NCBI GenBank assembly: GCA_951406725.2
Contig: OX597823.1
Span: 2,852,001 to 2,916,000, forward strand
DNA length: 64,000 nucleotides
From: Octopus vulgaris
Taxonomy: Eukaryota
Direction of reading: 5' to 3'
Within the stretch, counting starts at the first letter, position 1. Every line of letters begins with the position of its first letter. Made by a program: the position numbers and the translations under genes. Shown here one piece after another: positions 2,932 to 53,552 of this stretch. The notes under the pieces were generated by a model. That model searched no databases and was not told the DNA's origin. It saw only the letters and a program-made list of their open reading frames with translations.

Positions 2932-2985
<54 letters not shown>

Positions 2986-4014
2986 GTATATGTATGTATA
3001 TATATATACATATGTGTGTGTGTGTGTGTGTAAATAATAGTAATGGCATTTTTATATAAGCTTAAAGCTCGTGGCGATCATCGTACAATGACTAAGGAAA
3101 ATAGTGCAATAAAGTGGCGTATAAGCCCTCGACAGAATAAAGAAGGCTTTCCAATCGGTGTCATCGCACGGTAAGCGTTAAGCTTATATAAGAATACCAT
3201 CATTATTATTATTTAAAGGATTGTAAACTCGGCGGCGTATATAAAAAAAACATTCGCACCGAAAGCATATATATATATCTGATGAATTCCGTTGCTTCGT
3301 ACAACCAAATTTCCTTAAAAAAAAAACTGATTGGTCAATTCTAGACTATTAAAATCACATACTCCGGCTGCCGTGCTGTAAGATTGAATTAGGTTCAGCC
3401 TGATAGAAAAGGAAGTCTCCTTGCTACACAACTCTACCTTCAGTTTATCATTTATATTCTGACCCTTAAAATGTACTCTTTGGGTTAGATATAAATATTG
3501 TTATTGAAATGTATTGTTTGTTTTCAGATTCACTTCAACTCTGATAGAGCAAACGTTTTGAGCGAAAGCATTCCAGCCTTGTTCAGGTTGTCTTTTCTTC
3601 AGATTTAGTGCGTTTAAGTATGTATTAAACCCAATTTTTTAAGACGGTACGCATGACGCATGGAAGATTTAGCTATTACTTTTAATAGATCAAGCAACTG
3701 TATACAGCATTTGTTTTTTTAGTTGATCCATCGTCCTCTGATCAACAATCACCCTCCTAACCAGGCTACCGTCTGCGGCCTTACCTTCATTTTCGTTATA
3801 GGTATACATAATCATGTGATCTCGAGTGCTGTATATCTGAAATGAAATTGGATGGTGGGAATGTCTTTGATCATAGGTTTAGTTTGTTGGGTAGATCTAT
3901 AGCAAATGATAACTTTAGCCTATTTTGAATTTCTTGAGTTTCATATATAATTAGCCCTTGTTGTCATTTAGTTCTATACTAATCGCCATTGAGCAAACAG
4001 AGTATCAGAAGCGT

Positions 4015-4059
<45 letters not shown>

Positions 4060-4292
4060 TTTCGGTGCGAATGGGTTTTTTATACGCCGCCGAGTTTACA
4101 ATCCTTTAAATAATAATAATGATGGTATTCTTATATAAGCTTAACGCTTACCGTGCGATGACACCGATTGGAAAGCCTTCTTTATTCTGTCGAGGGCTTA
4201 TACGCCACTTTATTGCACTATTTTCCTTAGTCATTGTACGATGATCGCCATGAGCTTTAAGCTTATATAAAAATGCCATTACTATTATTTAC

Positions 4293-4345
<53 letters not shown>

Positions 4346-4397
4346 CATACATACATATATATAAGGAAGGAAGGCATAGGAGGAGGCGGGGAATCAC
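2887..4397. repeat. Long inverted duplication: arms 2887-3284 and 4016-4397, spacer about 730 bp
   Basis: 3031-3268 is the reverse complement of 4056-4291 with only a few differences; flanking microsatellites and the 'ttccccgcctcctcctatgc' segment are also mirrored. Confidence 0.92.
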
Positions 4398-4879: not shown

Positions 4880-5068
4880 GTAGAAATAGGTTTCAAAGAG
4901 AAAAGAAACTACACTTTGTATAAATATGTAAAAACTAAAAATAAAAGAGAAAATGCACATTGCATATGAAAAAATATAGGCTTTTTATGAACAGCAATGA
5001 TAAATATATACAATTAAATGACCTGAGGTAGAATTAAGAGGTATAAAAGTCATTATTTTGTTAAAGAG

Positions 5069-5116
5069 ATTCAATGTCATACCGGTATTGTCAAAAGCTG
5101 TTCACTGTCTTTGAAT
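5069..5116 (-). ncRNA. Hammerhead-like motif in PLE pLTR (G3-C8 core variant, degenerate)
   Basis: ATTCAAAGACA-GTGAACA-GC TTTT GAC-AATA-CCGG-TA-TGACATTGAAT: stem I, core, short stem II, palindromic ACCGGT in place of stem III. Confidence 0.5.
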
Positions 5117-8100
5117 GAGCACCGATTTCCAAACGGTGTCGGGTCTACTCTTTGTCGGAGTGACATTCCTGTTTGCCCATCAGTACCCGCCAAAAGGTGG
5201 GGGCATGTGCCACAGTTAGGCCGCCCGTATTTTTCACTTTTGGTTCCTTTGTTAATAGATATAGTCTTGTGTTGGTTAATATTATTTTTAATGATTTCGG
5301 TTGCATTTTGCTCTTGATAATTTTGTGTGAGCCTAAAATTTTTTTCATTGTTTTATCTCCTGTGAGAATGGATAGATTTTGTATGATGATGTTGAAGGCC
5401 TCATTGTTTCTATGGTTGTGTGTGAAGTATGGGAGTATTTTAAAGTCTGGTTTGGTATTTCGGTTGACTTCCTTTAATGTTCGTATGTCTATTTCCTTTT
5501 CTCGTTTAATCCCATCAGTTATTAATGATGCTGGGTAATGTCTCTTGATTAGTATTGATCTGAGTTCAAGGAGTCTTCGTTCACGAGTATAGGTGTCCGA
5601 AACTATAGTACAGATTATTTTCGCTAGATTATAAGTATATTAATTTTTATGTGCTTGGGATGGCATGAGTTGAATAATAGGCATTGTTTAGAATCTGTGG
5701 GTTCATAGAAGATGTCTGTTTCGATATGGTTATTGACTATTTTAATTAGGATGTCAAGAAACGGAAGTTGTTTATTGCTGTGGTCCATGCTGAATTGTAT
5801 GTTGCTATTGATATCGTTGTGCATTATTTTGAAGTCAAGGAGTTTGCCCATGCTGCATTTCCAAAGTGTAAAGCAATCGTCCAAATACCTCTTTCAGTCT
5901 TCCTTTAAATAGCAATGAAATGAGGTGCCATATTTTTGTAGTGAGGATTGGTATATTTTAAGTGCTAGGTAACCCATTACAAGGTTCGCAATCACTGGGG
6001 CAAATCGAGTTCCCATTGCAATTCCACATTTTTGTCGATACTAAACTGTATCGAACATTAATTAGCTGTTCAGTAGGATGAATTTGAGTGCTGCAATTAT
6101 GAATCTGTGGTTGATGCAACCTGGGATCTCTTCCGGGTATTTTTCTAGCCAGAAGGTGATTGCTTCTATACCATAATCGTGTGGGATATTAGTGTACAAA
6201 TTCACCACATCGAATGATAATAACAGGGTTCCTTCATTTATTGTCTTCGGGAGGTGTTTAAACATGTCTAAGTCTTCCCTGATGAAGATTTTCACATATT
6301 TTAGAAACGGTTTGAGTAAGCTTTCGAGAAAGTTGCTCAAACGGTGGGTTTCACAAGCAGGGCTAGCAATGATGGGTCTGAAGTCAGTAGTGGGAGGTAC
6401 ATTAATGCATACGCTAGGAGAATTTTTGCAAGATTTACAAATATGTAGATTTTTGTGTATTTTAGGTACTCCGCAGAATAGAGTAGATCTGTATTTAAAA
6501 TTGAATAAATAGTTAATTTCATGTTTAGTGAGGCCCTTTCCATGTATTTGAAGTTAGGAGGATAAGCTTTTAAGTGTCTTCTGTGGTTTGTATTGTACTA
6601 TCTTCTCATAGTAAATATTATTTTCCAATTTGGAGAGTATAACATTTTTGTAGTACTCTGTGTCCATCACCACTGCCGCACTTCCTTTGTTGGCTTCTGT
6701 AATGGTGAGGTTTATATCATTTTTTAACTCGATTAGGTCGTTCCATTCATTTACATTAAGGCTTGATTTGATTCGTTGTTTTTGTAAGGTATTAAAAGGA
6801 AAACTGGTAATGTGTTCATAAAAAGCATCAAGTGCTTTATTTCTGCCTATTGTAGGACAGTATTCACTTTTGTTTTTTACTATTAAGTCATCTTCGCTGG
6901 TGTAGTTGTGAAGTGCTTCTGTGTGGCGTAATTTTCGGCAGAAAGCCATAGTGTTATCCTTAATTTCATTCGGGTTCGATCAGCAGGGGGCTGGAGTAAA
7001 TTTTAAACCTCTTGCTAGAATTTTAGTTTGTGTAGTACTTATGATTTTCTTTGATAAGTTGATTATTTCCAGTTGTTCATGTATATTTTGTTCCATTTCA
7101 CATCTCTGTTTCTCTGATTTAGGTTTAAAAAATGGTTGTAGGAGGTGGATTGATGTGGAAGGTCTGTATAGGAGAAAATGGTTGCACAGTGTGTCTGTGG
7201 TAGTATGTCTGTGGTGGGGTGACTCTGTAGTGGACTAAGTTATGGTTGTACTGGGAGTTGTTATATTGTCTATGGTTGATGTGGCTTGGGTTAAATTCAT
7301 TCTTAATTTTGTGATGTGGGTGGAGAGAGAAGTTCTGTTGTCTAGTTAGGCTGTGTCTAGTTGAATGCTTGAAGTATCCATGTTGAGGCTAGGTGTCAGA
7401 AGCAAATTTGTCCCTTATCTGAGAGTTGATGGGGGTAGATTGGTAGGTAGTGGTTCTCGAATGTTTGGGTTAGTCTGGAGGCTTGCGTGGATCTTTTGAT
7501 TTGTATGTTGGGAGCCTTGAAAATTACGTCCGGATTTTCTACTACGAGCGGATTCCCTGTTTGTTGTTTGTAAGTTATTTGTAGGTAGAAGTGAGGTGAG
7601 GTTGGTTGAGTTGTGTCCCCTAGATTGTCTGTGGTTTGAGCCAGAGAAATGTAAGGTCATTTTTGCGTGGGTTTTTGGTTTATCTTTCTTCAGGAAGGGG
7701 TTATCTGATATGTTTTCTATGTTGAACGGTGTTTCGTAGTATTGGAAACAAAATTAGCTTCTCTTTCCCAGCGTTGTTGGCAATTGATTTCTTCAGTTTC
7801 ACAAGTTGTTTTCCATTGTTTAAAAACACTCTCCAACAGTTGACCATCTCAATGTTTCCTTAATACGGAATATATTTCCTCATCTATGCTTTTAAATTTA
7901 TGTTCATTTCTTAACGCTTACGTTTAAGGATTTCCATTTCCGTTTTCCTTTTCTTCCAATGCTAGTCTCTCCCTTAATTGTCTTTGTTGGTCCTGTTCGT
8001 TTGGTATTAGTTTAATTTGAAATTTACGAGGTAAGATTACTGGAGTTGAATTTAACCAGCGTTCATAACTTTCTGCCGTGTAGTTGTTTTTAATAATATT

Positions 8101-9013
8101 CCAGAAAGAAAGTTTTCTGGCTTTAAGTTCCTCCTTCCAAATATGGATAATACGGTTTTTAATTGATTGCATTAACGTAGTGGATGTTCTATGGTGTGTA
8201 TCATCTGTAGGGGATTTTCATTTATGCAACAATTATGAGGTAACGATTGTAGAGTGGTGCATAATTCGGTCAAATGTTGATTGAATTGTTCCAGAGATTG
8301 CCCTTTCTCTTCTTGTGTAAATCGTTTATGTTCATCAATCTTATTAATTATGAGTCTCAAATTCGAGCTAATCTTTTTTAGTTCCTTTAGAGTATCTTCG
8401 TTGAAAGTTTTAACTGAAAAGTTTGGTATCTGTGGCATTTTAAATCTCACGTTTAGTAAAACACAATAGAAATAGGTTTCAAAGAGAAAAGAAACTACAC
8501 GCGGTATGAATAAGGGAAAAGAAAAAAGAGAAAATGCATGTTGGATATAAAAAATAAAGACCTTTTTATGGGTGCAGTAATCAATATATTGGGCAAACAG
8601 GAATGTCTCTCCGACGAAGAACAACTCTTCACAAAGAACAAATCCGTTATCCACAATACAGACAGATACAGGCCAGTGAACACAGAAAAATGTGCTAGGA
8701 ACCTTAAACCAAACTTCCTAATTTTCCCTTTCTATCAAAGTTCACAGTACACCTAACTACAGCAAAGAATGAATAAAGAGGCGACGTTCATTAATAAATA
8801 TCATCCAGAACTCAATATGAACACATAACATAATACAGGACACTACTAACCTTACCAACAATACCACTAATTTCCATGCATCCTATACACCAATCATATT
8901 ACAATATATATATCTACCCTAATTGCACCACTTCCAGAACTGCTTTCTTCCTTTGCATATAATCTTTTTACTCAGGGACTAGTAGACCCGACACCGTTTG
9001 GAAGTCAGTGCTC

Positions 9014-9061
9014 ATTCAAAGCCAGTGAATATCTTTTGACGATACCGGTATGACTTTGAAT
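9014..9061 (+). ncRNA. Hammerhead-like motif in inverted pLTR copy
   Basis: ATTCAAAGCCA-GTGAATA-TC TTTT GA C-GATA-CCGG-TA-TGACTTTGAAT; 10 of 11 stem I pairs. Confidence 0.55.
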
Positions 9062-9213
9062 CTCTTTAACAATTCAAAATAATGACTTTTATACCTCTTA
9101 ATTCTACCTCAGTTCATCTAATTGTGTATTTATATATATCGTTATTGTTAATAAAAAAGCCATTATTTTTATATGCAATGTGCAGTTTCTCTTTTTTATT
9201 TTTACCCCCCCCC

Positions 9214-9260
<47 letters not shown>

Positions 9261-9481
9261 GGTATGTATGTATGAATATATGTATGTATGTATGTGTGTA
9301 TGTGTGTGTGTATGTATGTATGTATGTATGTATGTATGAATGTATGTATGAATGAATGTATGTATGTATGTGTGTATGTATGTATGAATGTATGTATGTA
9401 TATGTGTATAAGTTTGAATATGTGTGTTCCTCCTAAAATTCATGAGGTATTTTCAAAAATAAAACTATTCTAAGCACATAC

Positions 9482-9610
9482 CTTCGGTTCCAGAAGAAGG
9501 CTGCGGCTGTATATCAAGTTTAAGTCATCTAGCTTCTCCAATGTCCATGTTGTCAATTTAGCATACAACTCTTTAATGTCGGTTTCCGCTACGTCCAATT
9601 CGATTCTCAT
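9482..9610 (-). CDS. Lipoxygenase coding exon (129 bp, phase 0-0)
   Basis: Acceptor cattttatttcAG, donor GTatgt. Open frame MRIELDVAETDIKELYAKLTTWTLEKLDDLNLIYSRSLLLEPK, in frame with both neighbours; W..L.DL..IY resembles the LOX segment preceding the W.ED..FG motif. Confidence 0.88.
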
Positions 9611-9804
9611 CTGAAATAAAATGTTACGTTTTATTTAAGGGTTGAAAAGGTCAAGTTTGTATGAGAGCAAAGAGACGCGACTGATTCGGACAGTACATAT
9701 ATTCGATACATGTTTTCTATATTTTCTATGGATACCTACTCATACATACAAATATAAGCACAAAAAATAGATGTATATTTATCGCGCTCCTCCCACTCTC
9801 TCTA

Positions 9805-9835
9805 TTTCTTCTTCATCTTCTTCTTCTTCATCATT

Positions 9836-9886
<51 letters not shown>

Positions 9887-9955
9887 TTCTTCTTCTTCTT
9901 CTTCTTCTTCTTCTTCTTCTTCCCCCCCCCTCTCTCTCTCTCTCACACACACACT
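9805..9955. repeat. Compound (TTC)n/(ATC)n/(CT)n microsatellite
   Basis: Direct reading. Confidence 0.9.
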
Positions 9956-10317
9956 TAAACGTAGCATTAGTAGATTCAACATTTTATTCATCATTTTCAG
10001 TTGATTGGGACTTCAAATTTTGCCTTAACAGACTGTTCAACTAGTTAGATTCACGCTGATATACTCAATTCAACATTATGCGTGATTCCATTATTTCACT
10101 CACTGATGGTTGAACTGTTATAAAAATTAGACTAATATATTAAGTTCTTCCTGTTGACTCTATTTATTCAATTTATATACACACACGTGCACATATAAAT
10201 ATATATATATATAGTCAATTCGAGGATGTCAGGTCTTCGTTAAGAATTAAGGAATCCAAAAACCTTTCAACCTCATTATATCATACAAATAAATTTTTAA
10301 TATATCCATAAGTCTCC

Positions 10318-10354
<37 letters not shown>

Positions 10355-10444
10355 TATACATACATTCATACATACACACGCACACTCACACACACACACA
10401 CGTATATATATGTATGTATAAATAAATATATATATATATATATT

Positions 10445-10615
10445 ATAAGAATCTTTTGCGTAATGAGATAAAAAACCAAGGCTGTGTAGATATTAGAACA
10501 TTTATAGACAGAAGGCCTTAGAGCTGTTTCCAGGATATTTAATAATTATATCCCTTCATTGGAGACAGTGTGAGAGGATGGTTGGGTCTCAAGGACACCA
10601 TTACCTCTTATAACC

Positions 10616-10618
<3 letters not shown>
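10445..10618 (-). mobile_element. Short pLTR-like repeat with degenerate hammerhead motif
   Basis: Minus strand gtct-CCAATGA-aGGGATAT..ATATCCT-gGAAACAGCTCTA-aggc between (TA)n tracts; 7-bp stem II, mutated core. Confidence 0.4.
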
Positions 10619-10659
<41 letters not shown>

Positions 10660-10679
10660 TGTGTGTGTGTGTATGTGTG

Positions 10680-11947
10680 TATCCTTTAAGTTCTGTCTAA
10701 ATTTTGAATAAAGGAAACAAGTGATCAAATGTTATATTTAATTGAAAGTTAATCATCAATGTACTTTCCCTGATTATCAATGACTTCCTTCCATCTATTT
10801 ACAAGCTTTTTAATCCCATCAATGTAAAACTCTTTTGTTTTCAAAGGGAAGAACTCTGAAATGTCAGTTTCGACCTCCTCCTGGCTTGCGAAAGTTACGT
10901 CCCCCAAATTATTCTGTAAACTACGAAAGAAATGGTAGTCTGAAAGAGCAAGGTCGGGAGAATAAGGTGGACGAGGAATTTTTTCCAACCAAGCTCTTCG
11001 ATCTTCTGTGATGTGATCTTTGCAGCGTGGGGTCGTGCATTGTCCTGATGAAATATCACTCCTTTTCGAATCACTAAAGCGGGTCTTTTTTTCTTCAAAG
11101 CTTGGTTCAAACGCTCTAATTGCTGACACTTGATTTGAACATTGATTGTTGAATTAGGTGGTAACAATTCAAAGTGAATTACTCCTTTGCAATCCGAGAG
11201 AAGAACTATTTTTCCATGAAGTTCCCTTCTCAGTTGTGGTTGAGTTTTTTCCCTTTTACCAGGTCACTGTTTACGACATTTAACATTTTGATAGAAGATC
11301 CATTTTTCGTCACCAGTCACAAGTCTATCCAAAAGGGGTGAAATGAGTTCACGAGAATGGAGAGAAGAGCAGATGTCAACTCGGGATTTGCGGTTGCTTT
11401 CGGACAATTCATGAGGCACCCATTTTCCAAGTTTAGAAAACCTTTCCAATTTGTTCAAGATGACTATGAATAGTTGTATGGTTTGAACTAAGCTTTATTG
11501 CCAATTCTTCAACTGATAATGCAGGATTTTCTTCAAGTAATGCCTCAAGGAGCTTATCATCAAACTCAACTGGACGTCCTGTTCAATCTTCATCTTCAAG
11601 GCTGAAATCGCCACTTCTGAGTTTTGCAAACCATCTTCATCAAGTTCTTTCATTCAAGCATTGTTTCCCATAAACTGAGTGTATGTTTCGAGTCGCTTCG
11701 GCTTCAGAGTTTCTTTTTTTGTACTCATAAAGCATTATGTGCCTCAAATGCTCTTTGAATACTTCCATGTTAGAAAGGATTTTAATCAAAGAAATTTTAA
11801 TTCTATTATTCTGTAAAATAATGTTTGATTAGTTTAAATGTACACAAATGCATAAAAGTAATTCCATTAGACGTTCTAAAATACTATTAAATTTCTTTTA
11901 ATTCCAAAAAAGGTAAAATTGGACAGAACTTATGGGATGACCTGATA
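10680..11947 (-). mobile_element. Mariner DNA transposon, near full-length, frameshifted transposase (about 11768 to 10749)
   Basis: Motifs KLGKWVPHEL, VTGDEKW, FHQDNARPH, PPYSPDLALSDYHFF; partial TIRs taagttctgtc(t/c)aatttt at both ends; TA-rich flanks. Confidence 0.93.
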
Positions 11948-11951
11948 TATG

Positions 11952-12029
<78 letters not shown>

Positions 12030-12035
<6 letters not shown>

Positions 12036-13528
12036 GAAGAAATTAAAAAAGGAAAATACGCACACTGACATTGTTATAGTATAATTTTTAATGTATTGAC
12101 CGGTTTCGCAATCGCTATTCATGATATAATGTTTAATTTATATGAAAATATATTTTTTCTTAAGAAGAAATATGGTCCATGTTATTTGTAATGAAATTCA
12201 CGAGTGAAAGATTTTACAAGTTGACAAGTAAAGGGAGGTAATTGGTTGTTATTATTGTTATTGTTGTGTATAAGTGAGATAACTGTTTAAGTTTTGGGTA
12301 GGGAATAAATGTGTACAGAAAGGAGACAGGTTTAAAAAAAGGGCCTTGTTTCTTAGGGGATTTATGTACAGTGATGTAGTGTGTAAAAATATAAAAATAT
12401 AAAAGTTGGTTATGCGTGCTTATTAAGATGCATTTTGTATTTTCCAATGAAAACAGTTTCTTTATTTAAGCGTTCTAGTTGAGAGATTGTGTCTTTGCAC
12501 TGGTAGAAAGGGAAGACTGTGACATTTGGTTTGATGTTACCTGCACATTTTTCTATGTGTTCACTAAGAGGAATTTGTCTGTATTGCGGGAAACGGATTT
12601 GCTCCTTATGCAGAGTGATTCTCTTCCTCAAAGTTAAACTCGTTTGTCCAATGTACTGATGACTGCAACCCGAGCAGGTTATTATATAAATTAGGTTCTC
12701 AGAGGCACAGGTGAAACTAGTTTTAATTGTGAACCTCTGTCTCGTTTGAAAAGGAAATCCGAGCCTTCAAGCAGGTGGGGGCAGGTTCCACAGTTTGGGT
12801 GTCCACACTTTTCAACTGTTGGTTTCGTGGTTGTTTTGTAAAGCTTCGCGTTTGTTAGTAGTCTCTTTAGCGATTTGTCTTGTTTTTTGCATTTGATGAG
12901 TTTGTGTGTTTTCAGGATGTCGTTCATTTTTGAATCTCTAGTTAGTAAAGGGAGAGTTTGCACAATAGTGTTGAATGCCTCACTGTTTCTGGGGTTGTGT
13001 GTTGATATAAAAAGTAATGTTTTGGTTTGAGGTGTGGTGCTATGTTTTTTGTTCTTAGTGTTTTTGTGTCTAATTGTTTGGCACGTTTAATTGCCTCGTC
13101 GATAAGAGAGGGTGGATATTGTCTTTCAATAAGTGTTGTTTTGAGGTCTTGAAGACGAAGGTCCCAAGTTGTTCTATCAGACACTATTGTGCAGATCCTT
13201 TTTGTTAAGTTAAAAGGGATGTTTATTTTTATGTGTTTCGGGTGGCATGAGTTAAAAAGAAGATATTGTTTGGAGCCAGTTGATTTATAATAAATGTCAG
13301 TTATAATTTCATTGTTAACTTTTTTTATATTTTTATATTTCTTCTTAAGAAAAAATATATTTTCATATAAATTAAACATTATATCATGAATAGCGATTGC
13401 GAAACCGGTCGATACATTAAAAATTATACTATAACAATGTAAGTGTGCGTATTTTCTTTTTTTAATTTCTTATATACATAACAATCTACCACGTGGGGAC
13501 AACCGAAATCCCTTTTTTCTGTTACTAA
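12030..13528 (-). mobile_element. 5'-truncated Penelope-like element with inverted pLTRs
   Basis: RT C-terminal TDIYYKSTGSKQYLLFNSCHPKH, CGHPNCGTCPH, GIY-YIG NLIYIITCSGCSHQYIGQT..RITLH. 12030-12172 is the reverse complement of ~13335-13480. Confidence 0.9.
13382..13414 (+). ncRNA. Minimal hammerhead motif, A3-U8 core variant (second copy on minus strand 12094-12126)
   Basis: TATC-ATGAATA-GC GATT GC-GAAA-CCGG-TC-GATA: 4-bp stem I, 2-bp stem II, palindromic ACCGGT, GUC triplet. Confidence 0.62.
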
Positions 13529-28205: not shown

Positions 28206-28449
28206 GAGCATATGTGTGCGTCAGTGTGCATGTGTGCAAATGTGCTTGTGTATGCACATGCATGCAATTATGCATATATGTATGAAAGTATGTATGCATG
28301 TATGTATACATATATACATGTATACACATATACATACACATTTGCGGTGTGTGTGTGTGTTCTTGCTTGTCCGTATTACCTATGTACCTATCTATTTCTA
28401 CTTAACTATGTATCTATCTGTTTATTTACATATCCATTTATCTACCTAC

Positions 28450-28480
<31 letters not shown>

Positions 28481-28492
28481 AAGTGGAGTTGT

Positions 28493-28529
<37 letters not shown>

Positions 28530-28537
28530 GCACATAT

Positions 28538-28812
28538 AATGGTATTTTCTATATAAGTTTAAGTTTATGGCGATCACTGTGCAATGACTAAGGAAGATAT
28601 TCTAATAAAGGGGCATATATACCCTCGACAGAAAAAAAGGGGAGCTTGTCTATCCGCGTAGGAGTCGAACCTATATCCCTTTGTTAACGCGACAAAGTGT
28701 GTTACCTTTGCACAAGTGAATCAGCCTCCCCATTTAAGTCAATTTTACCATTATTATTATTTACAGGATTGTAAAAACGGCGTCGTATAAAAAAACATTC
28801 GCACCGAAGGCA
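28538..28812 (+). mobile_element. Third, diverged copy of the 3035-3268 repeat, with an antisense tRNA-like module
   Basis: Shares tggcgatca..caatgactaaggaa..ccctcgacagaa and ggattgtaaa..cattcgcaccgaa; 28648-28725 minus has the T arm TAGG-TTCGACT-CCTA. Confidence 0.7.
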
Positions 28813-28822
28813 TATACATATA

Positions 28823-29250
28823 TATTAAGTTGGAAACTAAGTTCCCGCCGTTTATTCAAATTTTGGAATCTATTTTTTTTTCGAGAATTCTATTTTTAAA
28901 TCATTTTGGAATCTATTTTGTTTGTTTGTTTTTCTAGTTAATTTTAGTTACTTTTTGTTTATTTTCAGATCATTAAAATGGAATGTCAAGTTAAGAAAAA
29001 CGAGCATTTTCGACACCTCCTTCTTTTTGCATTTAATCAAGATTCTAAGGCTTCAAAAGCTGCTCGCGACATTTATGCTGTGTATGGAGAGGGTGCCATC
29101 GCCGAAAGCACCGCTCGTGATTGGTATGCCAAGTTCAAAAATATAAATTTTAACCTCAAAGACGCACCTCATTCTGGCCGTCCAGTTGAGTTCGATGAAG
29201 AGCGATTAAACCAACTTTTGCACGAAAATTCTCGTCAAACGACAAGGGAA
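28823..29250 (+). mobile_element. Mariner 5' fragment
   Basis: Left TIR TAttaagttggaaactaagttcccgccgttt; MECQVKKNEHFRHLLLF..WYAKFK..DAPHSGRP helix-turn-helix region. Confidence 0.85.
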
Positions 29251-48945: not shown

Positions 48946-49270
48946 GGTGCAGGTGTGGCTGTGTGGTAACAAACTTGGCTCCAAAACACATGGTCCTCAG
49001 TTCAGTCCCACTGTGTGGTAACTTGGCATGTGTCTACTGCTATAGTCTCAGACCAACCAAAGCCTTGTCAGTGGATTTTGTAGACAGAAACTGAAAGAAA
49101 TCAATTGTATGTATATGTATGTATATATGTAAGTCTATGTGTGTGTCTTTGTGTTTCTCCCACATCACTGCCTCAAAACTGGTGTTAGTTTATTTACATC
49201 CCCATAACTTACTGGTTTCACAAGAAGAAACTGATAGAATAAGTATCAGGCTTATCAAAATATAAAAAAG
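48946..49270 (+). mobile_element. Diverged SINE (family of 38027)
   Basis: ggtgcaggtgtggctgtgtggtaa..ttcagtcccactg. Confidence 0.75.
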
Positions 49271-52565: not shown

Positions 52566-52889
52566 TATATATGGATTTCGTAGACAGGAACTGAAACAAA
52601 TCAATCGTATATATATATGTATGTATATATGTAAGTGTATGTGTGTGTCTTTGTCTCTGTGTTCCGCCCTCATCACTGCTTCACAACTGCTGTTCATTTA
52701 TTTACATCTACTTAACTTACTGGTTTCACAAGAACAAACTAATAGAATAAGTACCAGGCTTATCAACATAAAAAACGCACTAGGCTGTGTCTCATATTTT
52801 TGTTTGCCCACTTATTTGTATCTATCAATTTATCTTTGTATGCCTGTGTGTGTGTGAGTATATATATATATATATATAATTTCAACAAT

Positions 52890-53552
52890 TGAGAGAGATT
52901 TTCTTTAAGTATTAGAAATAGCTTTAAAAAAGTTTTTTAGCTGCTATTTCTAATGAGTTCAGTATGCGGCAAAGTAATTTATTTTACTAAGCCCTTTTAT
53001 ATAATGTAATAATTTGAATTCGCCTTAAATGGTCCCTTTGCATACTGAACACTTGGTGAAATTGATTAATAATTAATTAATTTTACCCTCAATTGTTGAA
53101 ATTATAATTAATCTCCCTCTAATTAATGCTTCGGATTTTACCGAAATAAGCATAGTGTTTGATGATTTTAACCCACGCTGGTGGAAAGGGGAGAACAGAA
53201 ATTCTTCGCTTGCTTATTTGGGTTTGTTGGCACTGTTAGTTACGAGCGGATCTTCGAAAGGGTATGTTCTTACTTTCAGTGTTTCCAAATCCAAACCAAG
53301 GAGTTTCTGAGCTGATGATAGAAGTGTTGTTTTGACTAATCTTGAAACGTACGTTCTCAAATAACCTTAGCATTTGATTTTTTGATGTCCTTACCCCCAA
53401 ACTTTTGTGAGTTGAATTAAGCAAACACTATATATGAGAGAGATTTTCTTTAAGTATTAGAAATAGCTTTAAAAAAGTTTTTTAGCTGCTATTTCTAATG
53501 AGTTCAGTATGCGGCAAAGTAATTTATTTTACTAAGTCCTTTTATATAATGT
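52890..53552 (+). repeat. 118-bp near-identical direct repeats (52890-53007, 53435-53552) around a non-coding core
   Basis: One mismatch seen between copies; internal hairpins; embedded in (TA)n. Confidence 0.85.

Follow-up and report, generated by a model that had tools for sequence, protein, structure and literature searches.

We analyzed a 64,000-nucleotide stretch of the Octopus vulgaris genome (assembly GCA_951406725.2, contig OX597823.1, positions 2,852,001 to 2,916,000; hereafter the window, in whose numbering all positions are given) and found that two decayed Penelope-like elements (PLEs), here called elements A and B, carry terminal-repeat hammerhead motifs that pair a purine at core position 3 with a pyrimidine at position 8. 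This purine-3/pyrimidine-8 pair occurs in two forms, A-U in element B and the sister of subfamily A and G-C in subfamily A itself, and is shared by three related subfamilies, namely A, its sister and B, the last being known from its window copies. We give a probability of roughly 0.62 to the reading, drawn from sequence, that these are terminal-repeat hammerheads in which the 3-8 pair has been flipped, that the A3-U8 form likely self-cleaves slowly, as a dimer and with the help of a protein, and that the G3-C8 form, which also carries U14, is likely impaired. The four motifs are as follows:

5069..5116 (core part 5105-5080), minus strand: hammerhead A-left, GUGAACA..AAUA-CCGG-UA, with G3-C8, G10.1, A12, U14 and A17.
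9014..9061 (core part 9025-9050), plus strand: hammerhead A-right, GUGAAUA..GAUA-CCGG-UA, with G3, U8, U10.1, G12, U14 and A17.
12092..12128 (core part 12122-12098), minus strand: hammerhead B-left, AUGAAUA, A3-U8, GAAA-CCGG-UC.
13380..13416 (core part 13386-13410), plus strand: hammerhead B-right, AUGAAUA, A3-U8, G10.1-C11.1, GAAA-CCGG-UC, the best-preserved copy.

All four lie where a first-pass annotation of the window had placed them and read as it described, with A3-U8 in B and with G-C and G.U in A. It had reported this core for both copies in element B; the core is indeed present in both, but these are the two arms of one insertion (12032-12173 and 13335-13476; 138/142 identical) and count once. 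The inverted arms of element A (4936-5149 and 8981-9204; 194/212 identical) likewise derive from one insertion, and therefore the window provides two independent observations rather than four. Position 3 is the same in both arms of each element. The stems of A and B differ, while U4, G5, A6 and A9 are kept. The 11-bp stem I that had been described for element A is long, as stated, but only 9/11 (left) and 10/11 (right) of its pairs form; stem I of the B motifs has 5/6 pairs on the right and 4/6 on the left, where the core-adjacent pair 1.1-2.1 is broken, and their stem II consists of 2 bp. A loose pattern accepting all four motifs, composed after these were known, gave 4 matches in the window, whereas 200 local shuffles yielded a mean of 0.21 and a maximum of 2, and no UGANNA box was found when the A motif was read on the opposite strand.

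The window copies are dead relics, with private core or stem breaks in three of the four: U8 and U10.1 in A-right, A12 in A-left (a G12A change by which the general base is lost) and the broken 1.1 pair in B-left are plainly decay of single copies. Neither A nor B has the C3 and G8 of the literal definition of a minimal type I hammerhead, which the published U3-A8 families had already loosened to any Watson-Crick pair at these positions. Element B and the A3-U8 sister of subfamily A (the latter according to consensus rows of loose contig ends) have all of U4, G5, A6, A9, G12, A13 and A14, and stem I, G10.1-C11.1, A15.1-U16.1, a palindromic stem III and H17 are present in B-right and, at the family level, in A. 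Both arms of element A have U14 in place of A14, and A-left lacks G12. Judged from these letters, the element B motif has the structure of a minimal type I PLE hammerhead, while the element A motif is better filed as hammerhead-derived than as a member of that class.

The state of the A family was read from contigs of four sequencing runs (four organism labels, four studies; one of them, X1, may be from the source sample) aligned to 8920-9200 at 80% likeness, with 821, 791, 368 and 550 aligned records per run. These family-level data concern the element A region only, positions are unphased, and depth is not copy number. At position 8, C accounted for 85, 92, 84 and 96% of depth in the four runs, and at position 10.1, G accounted for 79, 89, 79 and 90%; since both are the majority in all runs, the U8 and U10.1 of A-right are private decay, and G.U at 3-8 is ruled out as a family trait. 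Among the changes listed, G-to-C stayed below 10% throughout the region in all four runs and the two G-to-T sites lie elsewhere, so that C3 or U3 must stay below 10%. It follows that the subfamily aligning through the core is G3-C8. At position 14 (9043), A made up 30, 62, 53 and 53% of depth, and the non-A depth exceeded the depth through the core in every run; thus U14 is a multi-copy trait rather than a private change, and the doubt that the first-pass annotation had raised over the activity of this form stands.

A sister subfamily is visible in the loose ends, where rows in X1, X5 and X9 read A3 and three of them reach U7 and U8, with a stem II of 3-4 bp and a paired stem I, and one 5-contig row runs through GAAA-CCGG-UA. 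Among the rows listed, nine cover the core, eight of which have a purine at 3 and one of which is unreadable, and CUGANGA occurs in none of the 24 loose-end rows listed. Taken together, the proposal of the first-pass annotation that these are natural covariants is borne out for the A lineage, by C8 at 84-96% and by the A3-U8 sister, apart from its G.U state, which is the decay of one copy, and the canonical CUGANGA consensus that it had set against its own proposal is not what the A lineage has. The 3-8 pair is thus G-C in one A subfamily and A-U in its sister. Support for the interpretation comes from family-level data in the A lineage and from parsimony in B.

To place these motifs among their relatives, a profile of 32 proteins was used, which yielded 85 related loci, whose sense-strand hammerheads were read by script or by eye, some near-duplicates being counted. 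Hammerheads were readable in 49 of the 85 loci: 41 C3-G8, 6 U3-A8, 1 U3.G8 and 1 C3/U8. All 49 have a pyrimidine at 3, and none has a purine-3/pyrimidine-8 core; the other 36 loci, many of them cut short, gave no readable motif. In closer relatives the hammerhead lies 72-285 nt behind the open reading frame (ORF), with GAAA, a short (4-nt) palindrome and UH, as in the window. The 3-8 pair is intact in all 25 relatives that were aligned (21 C-G, 4 U-A), and a covariance model built from these 25 alone placed B-right at the top of its matches in the 64 kb (22.8 bits, rough E 0.04) and B-left in fourth place (E 0.95), while neither A copy was found at E up to 10. Rfam models run over each element, without canonical minimal relatives as a control, gave no hammerhead match at E up to 10, and over the whole window mostly matched microsatellite noise (among 150 of 303 matches listed). 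The mismatched C3/U8 core at L053:1531 and the U3.G8 wobble at L014:1929 stand in otherwise good hammerheads and are possible intermediates or decay. Weak purine-3 matches among the relatives (a second one in L004, and antisense ones in L051, L062, L066 and L076) were dismissed, because they lie away from the expected site and match the rate of the shuffle control (2.1 matches per set).

Minimal type I hammerheads of PLEs have been proposed to act as dimers, and families with a covariant U3-A8 pair are known (PMC4209133); here and below, statements on published work refer to the accessible parts of each source. The octopus motifs resemble these in their location in a terminal repeat, short stem II, palindromic stem III and G10.1-C11.1, and in the second copy at the 5' end on the opposite strand. 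However, all 56 representatives in Fig. S3 of that work have C3 (53) or U3 (3), and GAAA, whereas those described here have a purine at 3 and a pyrimidine at 8, and one subfamily has U14. Covariation at 3-8 was likewise noted among natural core variants of the hammerhead, but the accessible text names only U3-A8, and not A3-U8, G3-C8 or U14 (PMC3088659). The closest precedents for a G3-C8 core are engineered C3G/G8C swaps, which were partly active, including in a Penelope context (PMC11167929, PMC9901934). Those are laboratory mutants, while the natural G3-C8 subfamily adds U14. Covariation at 3-8 as such, in the form of U3-A8, is already published for PLEs, and what appears to be new is the purine-3 forms. 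Natural A3-U8 or G3-C8 hammerheads were not found in the accessible literature, several key papers and supplements lying outside that scope, and there is about one chance in three that such variants have already been noted in print. Lunse et al. 2017 reportedly covers about 150,000 PLE hammerhead variants.

We suggest the following course of events. The flip at 3-8 may have arisen once, in the common ancestor of A and B, after which G-C and A-U could interchange by transitions. Selection would act on the active fold of the hammerhead, because descriptions of the 3-8 pair come only from the tertiary-stabilized, active structure and, in the accessible text, not from minimal ground-state crystals (PMC3884650). 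The A3-U8 forms, in B and in the sister of A, would undergo slow cleavage after N17 when dimerized through the ACCGGU palindrome, and the protein of the element may assist, perhaps as a strict requirement; cleavage after N17 would trim tandem or read-through transcripts. A C3G/G8C double change partly restores cleavage in the Penelope (Poseidon) hammerhead of Anolis, where cleavage needs protein (PMC11167929).

Several observations weigh against this reading. A complete pairwise scan of a type III hammerhead found rescue for the G:C swap alone, with low activity in the other double mutants of the region (PMC9901934), and these would include A-U. Insertion of another Penelope element in vitro did not depend on the ribozyme, and that study saw no reads ending at the cut site (PMC11167929). 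The hammerhead form is the predicted minimum fold in none of the four window copies. At the family level, the share of the depth at 9060-9079 that aligns through the core is only about 3%, canonical subfamilies may lie unseen among 353 loose-end and 19 variant rows beyond those listed, G3-to-A could be present at 10% or more in the element A subfamily, and one X9 row (agreement 0.59) reads A3 with C8. Finally, changes of A14 lower activity more than 100-fold (PMC4075628), and U14 lengthens the palindrome to 10 nt, so that predicted dimers tie up A13, U14, A17 and U1.1; a palindrome of 8 nt occurs in the canonical control L001 as well. Because of the cost of A14 changes and the extended palindrome, the G3-C8/U14 form is likely impaired, with weak or no activity predicted. 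A7/U14 in subfamily A against U7/A14 in its sister could be a compensation; A7 together with A14 is common, which leaves this as a lead only. A tendency of N17 to avoid pairing with N3 (G3/A17; A3/C17 or A17) fits the three subfamilies and was not counted, as A17 is found in 3/6 of the U3-A8 relatives.

The strongest competing explanation, to which we would give rather less than an even chance and indeed count as unlikely, is that the flip is family-wide but catalysis has been relaxed, the motifs persisting as a dimerization or protein-binding structure made of stem I and the palindrome. It is favored by the multi-copy U14 in all four runs, by the unrescued A-U of the type III pairwise scan (PMC9901934) and by an insertion that in vitro needs no cleavage, in a study without reads ending at the cut site (PMC11167929); moreover, the path from C-G to a purine-pyrimidine pair takes two transversions via a mismatched state. 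On the other hand, complementarity at 3-8 has been kept in two forms, G-C and A-U, the pair belongs to the active structure (PMC3884650), and B and the A3-U8 sister keep all the other core bases.

Slow cleavage of the A3-U8 forms with impairment of G3-C8/U14, as preferred here, also has a bolder extension, in which a whole retrotransposon radiation uses purine-3/pyrimidine-8 hammerheads, all four Watson-Crick pairs occur at 3-8 in nature, and even G3-C8/U14 cleaves. We consider this quite unlikely. Cleavage of the last form, if real, might be explained by A7/U14 replacing the U7/A14 of the sister, or by the protein of the element remodeling the core.

It is also conceivable, but improbable, that the active masters are canonical and unseen, with the purine-3 subfamilies as side branches that multiplied passively while the ribozyme was under no selection. 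About 97% of the flanking depth fails to align through the core, 353 loose-end rows lie beyond those listed, and a pyrimidine occupies position 3 in every one of the 49 readable relatives, which come from other hosts. However, the listed loose ends hold no CUGANGA, the best-supported core rows read A3, and three distinct subfamilies have purine-3/pyrimidine-8 in common. That canonical cores simply decayed at random after insertion in just these copies is very improbable, since, despite the plain decay in A-right, A-left and B-left and the restriction of the family-level data to the A lineage, it is refuted for that lineage by G3-C8 in many contigs of four runs and A3-U8 in the sister, position 3 is common to both arms of each element, and the rough odds of a neutral double change in one copy are only 1e-5 to 6e-4.

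If purine-3/pyrimidine-8 hammerheads form natural families, evolution has crossed a two-transversion gap in a ribozyme core with the pair kept, which argues that Penelope hammerheads are selected for the active fold. Penelope hammerheads may have no function at all: they cleave slowly in vitro, were not needed for insertion in one assay, and have been regarded as possible parasites of the element. Ready-made natural controls are available in the sister subfamilies. Searches for CUGANGA or UUGANAA miss whole families of this kind, and elements reported to be without hammerheads may merit a rescan. Should G3-C8/U14 cleave, nature would have a working hammerhead in which three positions held to be invariant are substituted.

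The elements that carry the motifs have the following parts:

4881..9204, minus strand: element A, a near full-length, decayed PLE with an inverted 3' piece at its 5' end.
5173..7096, minus strand: main ORF of element A, with reverse transcriptase (RT), thumb and CxxxxCxxC linker, 5 stops and 2 frameshifts.
8570..8816, plus strand: GIY-YIG fragment in the inverted 3' piece of element A (tblastn).
8987..9013, plus strand, and 5117-5143, minus strand: hairpin directly 5' of the A hammerhead (from folding; depth peak 8960-8999).
12032..13520, minus strand: element B, a 5'-truncated PLE, with a 142-nt inverted arm (13335-13476) and then 44 nt more before (TA)n.
12410..13310, minus strand: ORF remnant of element B, with thumb, zinc (Zn) linker and GIY-YIG, and 2 frameshifts.

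Both elements have (TA)n flanks, which in element A lie on both sides. The ORF of element A covers residues 1-642 of the 753-aa protein P0003 (53% identity in the longest segment, tblastn), is 62% identical to P0001, has a weak RVT_1 match (Pfam, E 0.02) and retains a Zn-finger-like linker, GRPNCGTC, after a frameshift. Most of its GIY-YIG domain and the start of the 3' untranslated region (UTR) are deleted near 5150-5180, while a GIY-YIG fragment and the 3' UTR survive in the inverted 3' piece (8570-9204); the hammerhead lies about 200 nt behind the ORF. The remnant in element B is 70-78% identical to P0001, with a clear GIY-YIG match (Pfam, E 1.1e-07) and the linker CGHPNCGTC, and the hammerhead core begins 288 nt past the ORF stop (B-left). 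The hairpin 5' of the A hammerhead is found in both arms and in the loose ends of the sister subfamily, and might supply a tertiary contact or a protein site. Element A has about 1.3 kb ahead of its RT ORF (7096), opening with a short ORF at 8172-8460 on the minus strand; likewise, 1330 nt separate the upstream hammerhead of L001 from the ORF that follows. Such an upstream ORF may be a clade trait.

Both elements have the features of endonuclease-bearing (EN+) PLEs: RT is followed by a C-terminal GIY-YIG, both map along P0001 and P0003, and each has a CX2-5CxxC linker between RT and endonuclease and a pseudo-long terminal repeat with an inverted 5'-truncated copy. They resemble Neptune and Nematis EN+ PLEs in the C-terminal GIY-YIG with two cysteines between its motifs, the CX2-5CxxC linker, the inverted 5'-truncated piece, the (TA)n flanks and the hammerhead near the 3' end (PMC8557442), and by sequence appear to fit this type, the tree being without named reference elements to choose between the two. 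In the tree (48 rows, 300 columns), A and B, which share 56% amino-acid identity, cluster with P0001 and P0002 at 100% bootstrap, and the containing clade (94%) takes in a protein labeled Argonauta hians. No relative was found among the viral contigs searched. PLEs on short contigs in bacterial genome bins (L080-L085) are probably animal contamination.

Elsewhere in the window, a canonical-looking type I hammerhead at 53306-53361 (plus strand), with C3-G8, GAAA, an 8-nt palindrome and a stem I, lies near a 118-nt direct repeat (52890-53007 and 53435-53552); no ORF related to the proteins used in this analysis was found close to it. Two copies of another repeat (49204-49264 and 52712-52772, both minus strand) contain a U3-A8-like box with GAAA and weak stems, which may be chance. 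Fragments at 10749-11263, which have no Pfam match, resemble a mariner transposase in a motif. An element at 2963-4363, in which no hammerhead was seen, carries inverted repeats of 320 nt (94% identical), recurs as partial copies at 28411-28825, and is possibly a miniature inverted-repeat transposable element.

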